A DNA stretch of 64,000 nucleotides from Eledone cirrhosa (lineage: Eukaryota). Both the position numbers and the translations under genes were made by a program. Positions 50,662-59,714 of this stretch are shown here, in pieces. Location of the stretch: positions 339,016,001 to 339,080,000 of the forward strand of contig OZ024742.1 of NCBI GenBank assembly GCA_964016885.1. The letters run 5' to 3'. The notes under the pieces were generated by a model. That model saw nothing but the letters and a program-made list of their open reading frames with translations. It did no database searches and had not been told where the DNA came from. Within the stretch, counting starts at the first letter, position 1. Each line of letters begins with the position of its first letter.

Positions 50662-51838
50662 TATACTTTAACTTTAATTATATCTCATAAAATAATACAA
50701 CTGGTTTTTCCACATTATACATTTTGTTAGCACCCCAAACACTTAAATTGGGTTTATATTTAAATATAACCTAATGTTTGTTGAGTGAGATGGTTACCAG
50801 TCAGAGTTTAGCTTTAAACTATCTCTGTTATTGTATTAAATATTTACTCTTGATTGGCCAGAGGTGTTTATTTCCAGGTACCTTATGAATTTGACTTTCC
50901 GTATTTATAACTGTTGTGAAATGTTGTTTTTTTGGTTGTAACTTCTCTGTTTTTTAGCCTAAGAAAATATATATATGCCTATGTATATAATTACATGCAT
51001 AGATTTATTTTCTTTAATTAATTGAGTTCTTTACACGAGGAATTGATATTAGTTTTGAAATAACTAATTAACCCGCGTGTGTTTTATATTTTACTCTTAA
51101 TGCGGCCGGAGATTTACATTCCCATTTGCCCTTTAAAGCATAACTTTCTGTATTTACTGCGGTTATGAGATGCAGTTCTTATTCGGGTACAACTTCTGAT
51201 TTTAGCCTAAGAAAATATCTATATGCGTGTGTAATTTATACACGCATATATTTATTATTTTTTTTATTTTCAATTGAGTTCTTAACACGTTGGATTGATA
51301 ATGTTTTCTAAAAAACTAATTAACCCGCGTGTATATTATTTTTTTCCTCCTTTCGTGGATCGTAGTTGTCTCCCCGTCCCGCTTCGTGTCGCTATGATAC
51401 TTCCTCAGTCAAAAACTGCTGGAATTTCAAATTTTGCGGTCTTTCGATGCGAGAAGAAGCAACTTAACAGACACGATTTTTGACTGCGGTAAGAATTTCT
51501 TTCTTATATCAAAGTTTAATGGGCTTCCACTGATGATTTATAAGCACCCACCTAAATATATTCTTACATGAATATATATTAGGCTTCTACATAAACTGGA
51601 AATATTCTCCCAACTTATAGAAAACTTATAATGAAACAATTGTTTGGAAAGAGAGATATACTTTAACTTTAATTATATCTCATAAAATAATACAACTGGT
51701 TTTTCCACATTATACATATTGTTAGAACCCCAAACACTTAAATTGGGTTTATATTTAAATATAACCTAATGTTTGTTGAGTGAGATGGTTACCAGTCAGA
51801 GTTTAGCTTTAAACTATCTCTGTTATTGTATTAAATAT
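50662..51838 (+). mobile_element. ORF-less hammerhead-bearing element with ~180-bp terminal direct repeats (995-bp period)
   Basis: 50662-50843 nearly identical to 51657-51838; internal diverged ~250-bp duplication; hammerhead immediately before the second repeat; microsatellite flanks. Confidence 0.7.
51525..51649 (+). ncRNA. Type I hammerhead ribozyme with ~80-nt loop II (family C)
   Basis: TTCCA-CTGATGA-T TTATAAG..CTTATAA T-GAAA-CAATTG-TT-TGGAA. Confidence 0.75.
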
Positions 51839-52043
51839 ATACACACACACACACACACACACACACACACACACACACACACACACACACACACACACAC
51901 ACACACACACACACACACACACACACACACACACACACACACACACACACACACACACACACACACACACATATATATATATATATATATATATATGAGA
52001 GACGTAAAATAAGAAAATTATAAAATTTACTTACTAAAATATC

Positions 52044-52125
52044 ACTTCCAACTAATTAGTTTCTGGAATGGAATAAATATATTTTCCGAAGAAGATACAG
52101 AGAAGCATTCCGTCGTCAGGGAAGT
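52044..52125 (-). ncRNA. Type I hammerhead ribozyme (family D)
   Basis: Reverse complement of 52771-52852. Confidence 0.8.
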
Positions 52126-52585
52126 CTATTCTCATCTAAGTATCCAGGCAGAGCGTGGACACTGGAAACTTATTAAAAAATAATTCAGTGGATAGAAAAT
52201 AGCAAAGCGTGGAATGAATTCCTAGCCATTGAGAAAATCACTGCCTCTGCGTCGGTGGCAAATTCAAAAAGAATCAATCACGTGACATCGAGGTCAATCA
52301 GTGGAAAGTGGTTTGCTAATAAGACAGCGGCCTGCCTGCTACCATAGCAGCAGTCATGGCCAATATTGCTCGACAAATAATTTGGAGATAATTATAAAGA
52401 ATTAATATCTAGTAACATATATGTACATACAGATGCATATCAATGCTAGCAAATATATAGGTTTTGTCTTAGTAACTTTGTGGTTAAATGCATGGGGTTG
52501 CAGAACAATAATATGAGAGACGTAAAATAAGAAAATTATAAAATTATAAAATTATAAATTTTAGTAAGTTATTACTAAAATTTCA

Positions 52586-52665
52586 CTCCCAACTAATTAG
52601 TTTCTGAAATGGAATATATATACTTTCCGAAGAAAATATAGAGAATCATTTCGTCGTCAGGGAAG
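52586..52665 (-). ncRNA. Type I hammerhead ribozyme (family D, diverged copy)
   Basis: Core intact; stem II GAAATG/CATTTC versus GGAATG/CATTCC in the other copies; G-U pair in stem I. Confidence 0.8.
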
Positions 52666-52770
52666 ACTATTCTCAGCTAAGTATCCAGGCAAAGCGTGGA
52701 CACTGGAAACTTATTAAAAAATAATTCAGTGGATAAAAATAGCATTGCCTGGATACTTAGATGAGAATAG

Positions 52771-52852
52771 ACTTCCCTGACGACGGAATGCTTCTCTGTA
52801 TCTTCTTCGGAAAATATATTTATTCCATTCCAGAAACTAATTAGTTGGAAGT
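52771..52852 (+). ncRNA. Type I hammerhead ribozyme (family D)
   Basis: ACTTCC-CTGACGA-C GGAATG..CATTCC A-GAAA-CTAATTAG-TT-GGAAGT. Confidence 0.82.
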
Positions 52853-56181: not shown

Positions 56182-56741
56182 AGTAAAGATATGCATATGC
56201 TATAGGCGTTCTTTGTTATTTATTATATATATATATATATATATATATATATATATATATATATATATATATATATATATATATATATATATATGTGTAT
56301 ATATATATATATATATATATATATATATATATATATATATATATATGTATATATATATATATATATATATATATATGTATATATATATATATATGTGTGT
56401 ATATATATATATATATGTATATATATATATATGTATATATATATATATGTATATATATATATATATATATGTATATATATATATATGTATATATATATAT
56501 ATATATATGTGTATATATATATATGTGTATATATATATATATGTGTATATATATATATGTGTATATATATATATATATGTATATATATATAATATATATA
56601 TGTGTATATATATATAATATATATATGTATATATATATATATATATATATATATATATATATATATATATATATATATATATATATATATATATATATAT
56701 GCGATATTAATAAATGGAAACTATATTTATAAAACCATATT

Positions 56742-56806
56742 TATTTCATTATACATATTTCAGGGATACCAAATTAAAATATGGTATGCCTTCATCAGAC
56801 AAAATA
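56742..56806 (-). ncRNA. Type I hammerhead ribozyme (family G, mirror copy)
   Basis: Reverse complement of 56965-57029. Confidence 0.72.
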
Positions 56807-56964
56807 CAATATATAAACAGTTTTATAAATAATTTTGACGTACCCTATTAAATGCAACCATTATTTTTGGAAGTTGTCTGGATAGCTGTTTGGACAGCTT
56901 CCAAAAATAATGGTTGCATTTAATAGGGTACGTCAAAATTATTTATAAAACTGTTTATATATTG

Positions 56965-57029
56965 TATTTTGTCTGATGAAGGCATACCATATTTTAATTT
57001 GGTATCCCTGAAATATGTATAATGAAATA
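56965..57029 (+). ncRNA. Type I hammerhead ribozyme (family G)
   Basis: TATTTTGT-CTGATGA-AGGcATACCA..TGGTATcCCT-GAAA-TATGTA-TA-ATGAAATA; stem I has two G-U pairs. Confidence 0.72.
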
Positions 57030-57331
57030 TGAATAATGAAATAAATATGGTTTTATAAATATAGTTTCCATTTATTAATATCGTATATCTACTCCAAAAA
57101 CTTGTCGAGTGCTTTATATCAGTTATAAAATATTTACTTGTTGTATCCCAACAATTTTAAATAGAACTTTTGCATATATATATATATATATATATATATA
57201 TATATATATATATATAGTATTTGTTAAGCCTTCATTAAGTTTATTGATTGGTGACGCATATATATATATATATATATATATATAGATATATATATTACAC
57301 AATTATCAAAGTTATGTTCAAATCATTTAAT

Positions 57332-57378
57332 TGCTGACAATCGTTTCTTCCAAACTTTCGTTTGGAATCATCGGATCA
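57332..57378 (-). ncRNA. Variant/degenerate hammerhead (family H)
   Basis: Reverse complement TGAT-CCGATGA-TTCCAAAC gaaa GTTTGGAA-GAAA-CGATTG-TC-AGCA. Confidence 0.55.
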
Positions 57379-59714
57379 TTATCAATTTTTGTACATATAA
57401 TTAACCTCCTATTCCACTGAACAATCATATAGATACATATATATTGATGTTGTGAACAACAGTTTCGTATTTACAGGGTGTAATGGATGCGACATGTATT
57501 ATACGAGAATTGTACAAAAATTCAAATGAAAATTAAAAGGACAGAGTGGAATACATGCGACAGATAATACAAGAGAATAGTCTAATAATTAAAGAGGCAT
57601 TGAGAAAGAATGAGGACACTAGTAGTACATATGCAAACGTGTAGAATGTGCACATGCGTTAGTCATATATCTGAGAAGGAAACAAGCAAAGGTATTAGGC
57701 ATATATAAATAAATAAATACTGTAAAACACCTGATATTCTTACATTGAGCTATTTCTCTTACTGGTAATAAGGTAGTAAGAAATTACTGATCTTTCCTGT
57801 TTATAGTTGTTTATAGTATATACATAACTATAAATAGTATCATTATTATATATATATATATATATATATATGCATTCATACATACGCATACATATTCATA
57901 CATATATTCATACCTACACACACACACATATGTATATGATATAATGTATGCATGTATGTATGTACGTTCGTATGTATATATGTATGAATGTACATATGTA
58001 TATATGTATATATATATATATATGTATGTATATATGTCTGCATATATGTATATATACATATATGCATAAAAGTATGTATGCATCATGTATGCATAAATTT
58101 ATGTATGCATATATGTATGTATGTATGCATGTATATATATATGTATGTAATTTATAACAAGTCTCCTCGCGATTCAACAAAATAAAAAAACAACACACAC
58201 ACAAAATAAATAAATGAAAAATAATAATAAAAATATGTACAAATCATCCAAACGTTAACTGACGATAAAAATATAAACGTCCATTGTTTTCTTCTTGGAT
58301 AACATCATGCAACATGCAACACAATAGCAACAGTATTTGCACAACAAGGTAGAATATCATGACAGCTGCACACAGCATTGATATTAGCAGCGTGAATATA
58401 CGTGTTGAGCATTTACACATAGAGAACATTGGCAAACAGAACTGATAACATACAGTAAAGTATATGTGAACGAACGCCTGTATATGACAATAGACAAACA
58501 CACAAGCGTTCATCTCACATTCATGGATTTTAACACTTTTCTTAATATATGTATGTAATGCACACGCACACACAAACTCTCTCTCTCTCCCTCTCTCTCA
58601 CACACACAACACACTCTCATACACAAACACACACACACACACACACACACACACACACACACACACTTTCATACACACAAACACACACACATGCACCCAC
58701 ATACAAACACAAATGTATGTATGCATGTATGTATGTACATATGTATGTATATAAATATATATACGCATGCTGCATATGTACATATGTCTGAGTATGTGTT
58801 TGGATCTTTATATCATTTGCGTGTATCGTGTGTAGGTGTATTTGTTTTGTTTGAACATTGTGTGTTTTACTTGTATGTTGTGTGTATCACACCTATCTGT
58901 TATGTGTGTGTCCCGTTTATTATTCAGTCTGTAGGTGTGTAGATCTCGCTGATGCACGCGAGAACGTGTAAAATTCTAAAAGCCATCATCTACTTCACAA
59001 CCTTTTTTCTTCCTCAAGGCCGTCCTTTGTCACACGTGAATATGCTTTTAATTCAGAATCGAAAACGAATTTTCCAGTTCTCACCTTTCTCCCTTTCGTC
59101 CCCCCCCCTCTCTCTCTCTCTCTCTCTCTCTCTCTCTCCCAGTCACTCATGCTCTCATTCTCTCCCTATTTCTTCGTTTCTCGTTCTCGTTCTTTCATTT
59201 TCTCCCTCGTTATTATTACATGACTACACTTTATTATTATATCTTATTAAACAAGGAAATAGATTTAAAACAAATGTGAAAACTAAACTATTTGCACAAT
59301 GAACAAAAACAAACCCAAACAAACCACATCTCTTTGGCTACAGTTGTTGTGTCATGAAGAATTTCTCGATATACGACAGCTCAAGGAATTTAACCCTATT
59401 ACGTGCTATGTCAACAACGACTGCACCTTCCTCTACACTCTCAGCTTTAATATGCTTGAATCAACTTCAAGTATCAGCCTTTGGTATTTCCGACTTGATA
59501 AAATAAAAATCAATCGAGTATTATTAAAGCAGTGAACTGCCAATCGTATTAAATACTTTAGTATTTTTTTCGGTGTTCAAACCCATTTCGGGGCCGATAA
59601 AATAATACCAGCTCCCTAATATGGTAGATACGTCATCTATCTCTCTCTATATTTTCTCCGGATGAAATCGGTTGTGTTCAGACCTGGAGAGATGGATGGG
59701 TCCACTAGGTTTAA

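Follow-up and report, generated by a model that had tools for sequence, protein, structure and literature searches.

Hammerhead-bearing Penelope-like element ends and non-coding tandem units, probably stacked by separate insertions at TA repeats, in the genome of Eledone cirrhosa

A 64-kb stretch of the Eledone cirrhosa genome (contig OZ024742.1, positions 339,016,001 to 339,080,000; hereafter the window) contains, between positions 50662 and 57850, an island of closely spaced hammerhead ribozyme motifs. We interpret this island, with considerable confidence, as a stack of separate insertions of eight hammerhead families at TA repeats, which are clipped 3' ends of protein-coding Penelope-like elements (PLEs) in five cases (families C, E, F, G and F10) and tandem units without coding capacity in the other three (families A, B and D). 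The likely cause is that (TA)n is where Penelope enzymes cut and prime, each insertion leaving TA on both sides for the next. The PLE-hammerhead and non-LTR (long terminal repeat) retrozyme system is itself already known from prior papers on PLE hammerheads, on retrozymes and on their PLE origin; new here are the very high load, the clustering of 5' ends near the cleavage site and at a start driven by a TATA box, and the cross-family chimeric insertions. The features of the island are listed below, where ORF stands for open reading frame, UTR for untranslated region and C3 for the core position by which each hammerhead is named.

50662..51834, plus strand: family A, an ORF-less 995-nt unit whose 3' 178 nt are present twice (1.18 units in all); its 3' end lies in (TA)/(CA)n.
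51525..51649, plus strand: hammerhead A, C3 51530, predicted cleavage after 51644; long loop II, loop III CAATTG.
51993..53025: family B, an ORF-less unit of ~522 nt; tandem minus arm (51993-52753) head-to-head with a plus arm (52745-53025).
52044..52125, minus strand: hammerhead B1, C3 52119, predicted cleavage after 52050; loop III CTAATTAG.
52586..52665, minus strand: hammerhead B2, C3 52660; sister subfamily, ~90% to B1.
52771..52852, plus strand: hammerhead B3, C3 52777, predicted cleavage after 52846.
53104..53244, minus strand: F10 fragment, a tailed 3' end with the 3' half of a hammerhead, assigned to an ORF-bearing Hydra-like PLE.
~53181-53244, minus strand: F10 half hammerhead, the eighth family in the island.
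53257..53446, plus strand: family C, assigned as the 5'-truncated 3' end of an autonomous Neptune-type PLE; begins at the family's usual 5' end, ~30 nt past the TATA box.
53293..53331, plus strand: hammerhead C, C3 53298, predicted cleavage after 53326; loop III GTAC; second copy at 26162(-).
53634..54650, minus strand: family D, an ORF-less 472-nt tandem, 2.1 units.
53884..53928, minus strand: hammerhead D1, C3 53921; loop III CTAG.
54356..54400, minus strand: hammerhead D2, C3 54393.
54650..56227, plus strand: family F, assigned as the final 1.6 kb of an autonomous Hydra-clade PLE's 3' UTR; a short 5' piece (54650-54699) is in inverted orientation.
56136..56181, plus strand: hammerhead F, C3 56140; loop III CAATG.
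56694..57170: family E, two PLE 3' ends paired head-to-head as a foldback; the right arm exceeds the left by ~100 nt (tail).
56742..56806, minus strand: hammerhead E1, C3 56798; loop III TATGTA.
56962..57032, plus strand: hammerhead E2, C3 56973.
57285..57850, minus strand: family G, a Hydra-like PLE 3' end (57290-57711) whose ~130-nt tail is inverted at the other end (57720-57850).
57332..57378, minus strand: hammerhead G, C3 57374; U4C core, helix I weakened in the island copy.
Within 50000..57280, between elements: (TA)n and mixed (TA/TG/CA)n tracts, e.g. 49827-50665, 51841-51992, 53024-53106, 53447-53638, 56224-56700 and 57171-57284.

With a type I hammerhead descriptor that tolerates a basal mismatch or bulge in helix II and allows a long loop II, ten motifs were detected in the island (C3 51530+, 52119-, 52660-, 52777+, 53298+, 53921-, 54393-, 56140+, 56798- and 56973+) and 13 in the whole window. 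Local dinucleotide or block shuffling of the island (200 shuffles) left a mean of 0.01 motifs and at most one, and 30 shuffles of the window left none, whereas a stricter descriptor retained only five motifs because it forbids the basal mismatch in helix II. The original prediction, made from the sequence alone, had listed 11 folds in seven families; the type I layout (helix I, CUGANGA, helix II, GAAA, short helix III, UH, helix I) is indeed present at all 11 positions and the count of seven is right, but the F10 half hammerhead had been missed. The eleventh motif (C3 57374-) has the core CCGAUGA and a helix I mismatch in the island copy. We rejected its status as a decayed hammerhead, since position 4 is C in 21 of 22 distinct family G rows (69-95% identical) and U4C, a known natural hammerhead variant (PMC3088659), is therefore fixed across the family. 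The same prediction held that the families share only the core, which is mostly true, except that helix I is the same, and loop III similar, in the families of 56140 and 57374 and in a third Hydra-type family. Likewise, a palindromic loop III is perfect in seven of the 11 island motifs and imperfect in the other four (CAATG, TATGTA twice, CGATTG), and the TGCGCA example given for it lies outside the island (20589-/20726+). Overall, the assignment to PLE- or retrozyme-type hammerheads with a dimer-compatible loop III is supported.

Beyond the island, the window holds three intact motifs (20589-, 20726+ and 26162-) and two decayed copies (~13768-13833(-) and 14878-14965(+)), in agreement with the five that had been announced. 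A further stretch at 19780-19850(-) could be another decayed hammerhead, having by eye CUGACGA and helices I and II without GAAA. These motifs escape Rfam: no hammerhead was present among the 150 listed of the 189 rows returned for the window, and scans of three sub-ranges gave as best result one weak HH9 match in one of them (18.5 bits versus a cut-off of 52) and none at the cut-off; otherwise the scans yielded microsatellite noise.

Judging from their continuity with ORFs at other loci, four of the seven families (C3 53298, 56140, 56798/56973 and 57374) and the eighth fragment are 5'-truncated 3' ends of ORF-bearing PLEs, of Hydra and Neptune type. As predicted, tblastn found no PLE ORF in the window itself. 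The proposed search for a link to PLE ORFs family by family succeeded for C, F, G and F10 (93-99% identity) and for a sister of E (~89%), and gave none for A, B or D. All copy counts quoted for families are first-look candidates (370-4381 per family, best copies 90-99% identical) and not copy numbers; by these searches the families are dispersed young repeats.

Family F offers the most complete element, found at loci L226/L227 as a hammerhead, an open 844-codon ORF, a 2.2-kb UTR and a second hammerhead, with an inverted copy in front. Window positions 54699-56260 are 93.5% identical over 1638 nt to the last 1.6 kb of the L227 element, the ORF of which carries YRDD, DKT, CxCX5C and YIGST motifs. 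A Pfam search returned no match for the Hydra-type ORFs, that of family F included; 1218 proteins among 8000 candidates matched the latter at 1e-30, the sole homologue named to species being from Argonauta hians (43%). The marks of Hydra-type elements recovered here are DKT, the CxCX5C linker (also in the ORFs of L105 and L112), a (TA)n target and the lack of CCHH, this absence being judged by eye. [quoted passage not shown] At five of 14 loci, family G (4381 candidates) lies ~0.7-1 kb downstream of PLE endonuclease-type ORF pieces, across an intervening UTR shared by these loci, and the linker is degenerate in the ORF copies concerned. The sister subfamily of E (~89%) lies after a Hydra-type ORF at L105, across a 1.5-kb UTR common to three other loci; an ORF upstream of E at L073 and L078 was rejected as E's own, being unrelated to it. 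Finally, the F10 fragment (53104-53244) is 99% identical to L078, where a GIY-YIG-type ORF lies upstream. A further family of this kind, F4, forms a foldback hammerhead pair (TGCGCA loop) at 20400-20820 of the window and follows a Hydra-type ORF at L112.

Families A (995 nt), B (522 nt) and D (466-472 nt) are, on sequence grounds, ORF-less tandem units of retrozyme type with one type I hammerhead each, a GC content of 31-36% and no similarity to PLEs. In family A (2668 candidates, best 97-98%) the longest M-ORF has 60 amino acids, and blastx gave no match to the PLE set. A Nematis-like ORF upstream of A at L053 and L131 was rejected as its parent, since it belongs to a distinct element that has a hammerhead and a TA end of its own. 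Family B (2208 candidates, best 99%) occurs as 518-522-nt tandems, and a relative (L094, 66-78%) has a long UTR-like upstream stretch in which no ORF was seen. Family D forms arrays of 11-19 units elsewhere, including one of 17 motifs with a central inversion. In assembled contigs of four runs it was found in X1 and thinly in X5 and X6, the match in X3 being only 35 nt; matching contigs had no listed difference at core positions. Further ORF-less tandem hammerhead units were noticed at L247:58-1020 (310 nt with a CGCG loop) and L126:7600-8700 (a family D relative with inversion).

The ends of the insertions are informative. They combine fixed family-specific 3' ends at (TA)n with head-to-head inversions in which one arm is tailed, i.e. 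~70-130 nt longer, and in the full F element the tail is the sequence continuing toward the ORF. Partial tandems, inverted 5' copies and one-sided tails were found in the ORF-bearing families, and family B likewise, in its island copy, ends in (TA)n on both sides, short on one and tailed on the other. In family A the 3' end lies at +190 from the predicted cleavage site in 23 of 24 insertions; copying therefore seems to begin downstream of an uncleaved hammerhead. Six of the 24 5' ends fall at +1..+30 (assigned by eye; binomial 6e-5, for a window chosen after seeing the data) and two more at -10..-1, the island copy starting 13 nt past the cleavage-site position. In family C, 34 of 51 arms start at -74..-60, ~31 nt past a TATATAAG box at -103 that is preceded by CCAAT-like boxes, a clustering that suggests short uncleaved transcripts from an internal promoter, and six of the ten shorter arms start within 3 nt of the predicted cleavage site (four loci, one an internal deletion). 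The 3' UTR of the family C parent at L191:~1255-1400 has CCAAT-like boxes, a TATA box and an initiator-like site; in another family C copy (L182:1618-1620), a deletion takes the hammerhead up to 2 nt past the cleavage site in both arms. These 5'-end clusters would fit cleavage in vivo, RT stalling at the fold or TA microhomology alike, and the numbers cannot separate the three.

Two cross-family junctions were found among ~250 loci. In the window, F10 and C meet head-to-head with no TA between them and with exactly one tailed and one short end, as in a single insertion; at L162, an F10 PLE 3' end is fused to an A unit with a 3-nt overlap. Both would fit template switching, or else deletion or recombination. 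Two other candidates were rejected as chimeras: the D/F junction at 54650, which falls in the internal TA run of D, and a junction at L058, which is one family's own inversion. That this genome has the densest hammerhead load in the literature compared (~100/Mb, more than 20 families), that its insertions record ribozymes acting in vivo (5' ends at the cleavage site: 8 of 24 within -10..+30 in A, 6 of 10 in C) and that single insertions join the RNA of one PLE family to that of another or to that of a retrozyme, is a combined proposal which we advance tentatively, as possible rather than probable.

In the reading that we favour, the stack would be built as follows. The GIY-YIG endonuclease would nick (TA)n, and the RT would copy the RNA from its 3' end, mostly with an early stop or a foldback. 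Families A, B and D, as multimeric or circular RNA, would make use of the PLE enzymes in trans. The hammerheads would cleave weakly, mostly as dimers via the palindromic helix III (B possibly as a monomer), bringing multimers to unit length, and many family C copies would derive from short uncleaved RNAs with the promoter inside the terminal repeat.

How ordinary the island is was assessed on 89 10-kb stretches taken at round-number coordinates of the 3.0-Gb genome, which are not a formal random sample. They contain 87 hammerheads, versus none in five shuffles, a density of 98/Mb (bootstrap 57-151/Mb) that extrapolates to 1.7-4.5 x 10^5 hammerheads genome-wide; without one D array, 68 motifs remain in 880 kb. 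These hammerheads belong to 21 families, all seven island families among them, and PLE ORF pieces are present in 26 of the 89 stretches. A (TA)8 occurs within 500 nt downstream of 79% of 68 background hammerheads compared with 25% of random points, and the distance to the next (TA)n is family-specific. In 3.3-kb tiles, one family presence was counted in 81 TA-free tiles versus 58 in 186 tiles with TA (94/Mb). At the rate of TA-containing stretches, random piling predicts ~16 windows with at least six families, and ~1.5 with at least seven, in 3 Gb; the island is therefore likely the high end of a piling directed by TA, to which some mild clustering may add, and not a special locus. Contrary to the nesting first proposed, the elements are neighbours within (TA)n, and like stacking is seen elsewhere: at L053, A sits in the TA end of a different PLE, and at L078, E sits in a TA tract within an F10 UTR.

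The island had also been called a hot spot, and a true one (open chromatin, a fragile site or a piRNA-cluster-like trap) acting beyond TA preference would account for six families by the strict descriptor (eight in all) in 6.7 kb where 0.63 are expected, the best of the 89 stretches having five, and for background counts that look over-dispersed. However, besides the prediction from random piling, the neighbours of 116 family copies are not enriched, with 90/Mb of other-family hammerheads in their flanks versus 94/Mb in TA-containing stretches, and the 20 kb on either side of the window hold two and zero motifs. The claim was thus overstated, and we regard such a hot spot as unlikely.

For A, B and D, movement by a non-PLE RT, from a long interspersed nuclear element (LINE), or spread as satellites by unequal crossing-over, with hammerheads serving circular RNA only, would agree with the abundance of LINE ORFs (window 39.5-48.7 kb), with the length of D arrays (L141, a background stretch, has 19 motifs), with the missing parent PLE and with the satellite-type amplification discussed in a preprint (10.64898/2026.07.22.740005). 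Against it stand young copies dispersed on many contigs, the A-F10 chimera at L162 and, as in PLEs, fixed 3' ends in TA (A, 23 of 24 insertions), tail asymmetry (B), head-to-head inversions and tandem-plus-inversion arrays (D), and we hold this origin to be quite improbable. Mobilization in trans, as originally proposed for ORF-less elements at large, is most likely for these three families, on the strength of those marks; C, E, F, G and F10 are instead truncated ends of ORF-bearing PLEs.

Lower still ranks the idea of inert relics, motifs that repeats carry along passively, which we judge very improbable. It would agree with the lack of RNA evidence, with the reduced in vitro activity of U4C (PMC3088659) and with a predicted helix III that is weak in several families. 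Indeed, folding gives a monomer helix III probability of at most 0.07 for all island families except B (0.6); the predicted self-duplex reaches -4.8 to -9.0 kcal/mol for A, B, C, D and G, and is weak for F and E (-1.6 and -2.2 kcal/mol). Yet core and palindrome are kept between subfamilies of 69-95% identity and among 21 families that are unrelated. In eight families, core cells depart from the column majority in 20 of 2134 cases (0.9%) versus 1205 of 21474 (5.6%) at other positions, a roughly sixfold stronger conservation of the core that accords with the prediction, and loop III substitutions retain the palindrome (CAATTG/CGGCCG, CAATTG/CAGCTG). Among 25 mutually related copies of family E, 95.8% of helix cells are paired, 20 double-sided changes are located at four pairs, three of these in helix II, and three of five covariation measures exceed all 500 shuffles (0/500). 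That all seven families are ORF-less non-autonomous retrozymes, as the short copies, the ORF-free window, the E subfamily and a first pass (0 of 42 background copies of island families within 2.5 kb of a PLE ORF) might indicate, is scarcely credible and was rejected once C, F, G, F10 and the E sister proved continuous with PLE ORFs at targeted loci, so that it holds only for A, B and D.

Several observations weigh against the stack of PLE-driven insertions that we favour. The search for an autonomous parent of A, B or D came up empty (~250 loci, none with an ORF-linked relative), no inverted tail occurs in family A copies, and the island's own E subfamily was seen only as foldback pairs, not joined to an ORF. 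Two of the five covariation measures of family E, in related copies, are not above shuffles. Intact hammerheads are kept inside elements and at ends, and cleavage is therefore incomplete at best; moreover, minimal PLE hammerheads are described as cleaving poorly in vitro (PMC4209133), and eight of nine Xenopus dimers as not cleaving (preprint 10.64898/2026.07.22.740005). The family count per 10 kb shows no significant correlation with TA-tract number (rho 0.16, p 0.14), and one of the 89 stretches has five families, above the Poisson prediction, so that some extra clustering exists. In addition, the insertions themselves may have made or lengthened some of the TA tracts.

Much of this was anticipated by Cervera & De la Peña (2014, PMC4209133), who described the motifs, the dimer logic, the low activity and the single or opposite-strand occurrence from truncated PLEs. 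The minimal hammerheads of PLE pseudo-LTRs reported there resemble ours in their type I topology, short palindromic helix III and many divergent families per genome, and in being mostly single motifs from truncated PLEs, with opposite-strand pairs 100-700 bp apart and a few flanking a full ORF. They differ from ours at the base of helix II, where most families here have a mismatch (often U.U) or no bulge in place of the bulge after A9 with a G10.1-C11.1 pair; none of the 11 island motifs has the bulge form, and the 87 background motifs divide into nine with a bulge, 45 with a basal mismatch and 33 with neither. Loop II here reaches ~85 nt and a U4C family is present, and the estimated load stands against 2,000-9,000 in PMC4209133, the descriptors being different. 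The U3-A8 core variant is common to that paper and to this genome, with 11 background matches versus 2-6 in shuffles, four of the 11 forming one clear family, whereas the alternative cores G3-C8, A3-U8, U4A/G and U4C gave no match in the background stretches. The U3-A8 family in question (UUGAAAA core, CCGG loop III) occurs as an inverted pair and singles (L023:2144-2173 and 3186-3215, L092:3920-3949, L139:9647-9676), and the same covariant core is on record for PLEs of Schistosoma.

Families F, E, G, F4 and F10 resemble the Hydra clade of PLEs with a C-terminal endonuclease (EN+) as presented by Craig et al. (2021, 10.1101/2021.04.23.441226), with DKT and CxCX5C marks, a C-terminal GIY-YIG, hammerheads, the (TA)n insertion reported for all Hydra families, and partial tandems with an inverted 5' copy and a one-sided tail. 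The same source describes 5' truncation and microsatellite targeting in PLEs and calls hammerhead function unclear. Units here are larger (~4.9 kb, with AT-rich 3' UTRs of 1.2-2.2 kb, versus generally <3 kb), tails longer (~70-130 versus 30-40 nt), and the elements abundant versus a small number of families there. The parent of family C is like Neptune-type PLEs in its RT, CX2-5CxxC linker and C-terminal GIY-YIG, an assignment made by motif alone, and Nematis has the same linker.

Non-LTR retrozymes were defined by Cervera & de la Peña (2020, PMC7229834), who named PLEs as likely helpers and reported loads of >6,000 in coral, ~5,000 in mussel and ~120,000 in axolotl; Li, Clavereau & Pollet (2026, 10.64898/2026.07.22.740005) argued that animal retrozymes derive from PLEs. 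According to both sources they are, like A, B and D, low-GC tandem units without ORF, with one type I hammerhead each, ranging from monomers to long arrays and proposed to be PLE-mobilized. Our units of 466-995 nt exceed the 150-450 bp first described (PMC7229834) and match about the preprint range of 51-972 bp; their hammerheads are non-canonical, and their parent PLE was not found. No cephalopod hammerhead census came up in the literature searched, judged by title or abstract start, and the main text of a 2026 repeat annotation of Octopus vulgaris contains neither 'ribozyme' nor 'hammerhead', though its supplements may list such families.

The island itself is thus ordinary for this genome. 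What could matter more is a hammerhead load on the quarter-million scale, from young (97-99% identical) Hydra- and Neptune-type PLEs and retrozymes and invisible to Rfam. Intact recent autonomous elements beside recent non-autonomous units make a tractable system for the hammerhead's role in EN+ PLEs and for the enzyme that moves non-LTR retrozymes, and the 5'-end and chimera footprints could test cleavage in vivo and template switching genome-wide. If our tentative proposal is true, both the role of the hammerhead in endonuclease-bearing PLEs and the pairing of retrozymes with helper PLEs would be readable from the genome sequence by itself.

The rest of the window is of other kinds. At 28159-28575(-), a 139-codon ORF with a C-terminal hydrophobic stretch and a weak Calcyon match below the cut-off is likely a host exon. 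Two fragments, at 15241-15654(-) and 22325-22500(-), each contain CUGAUGA without a hammerhead fold and have no Pfam match; we take them to resemble the restriction-like endonuclease end of an R2/R4-type LINE. Two adjacent, GC-rich L1/Tx1-like LINE copies (RVT_1, zf-RVT) occupy 39557-48655, the second nearly full length, and satellite arrays with 41-bp (292 copies) and 38-bp (104 copies) units fill 1-12019 and 60036-64000.

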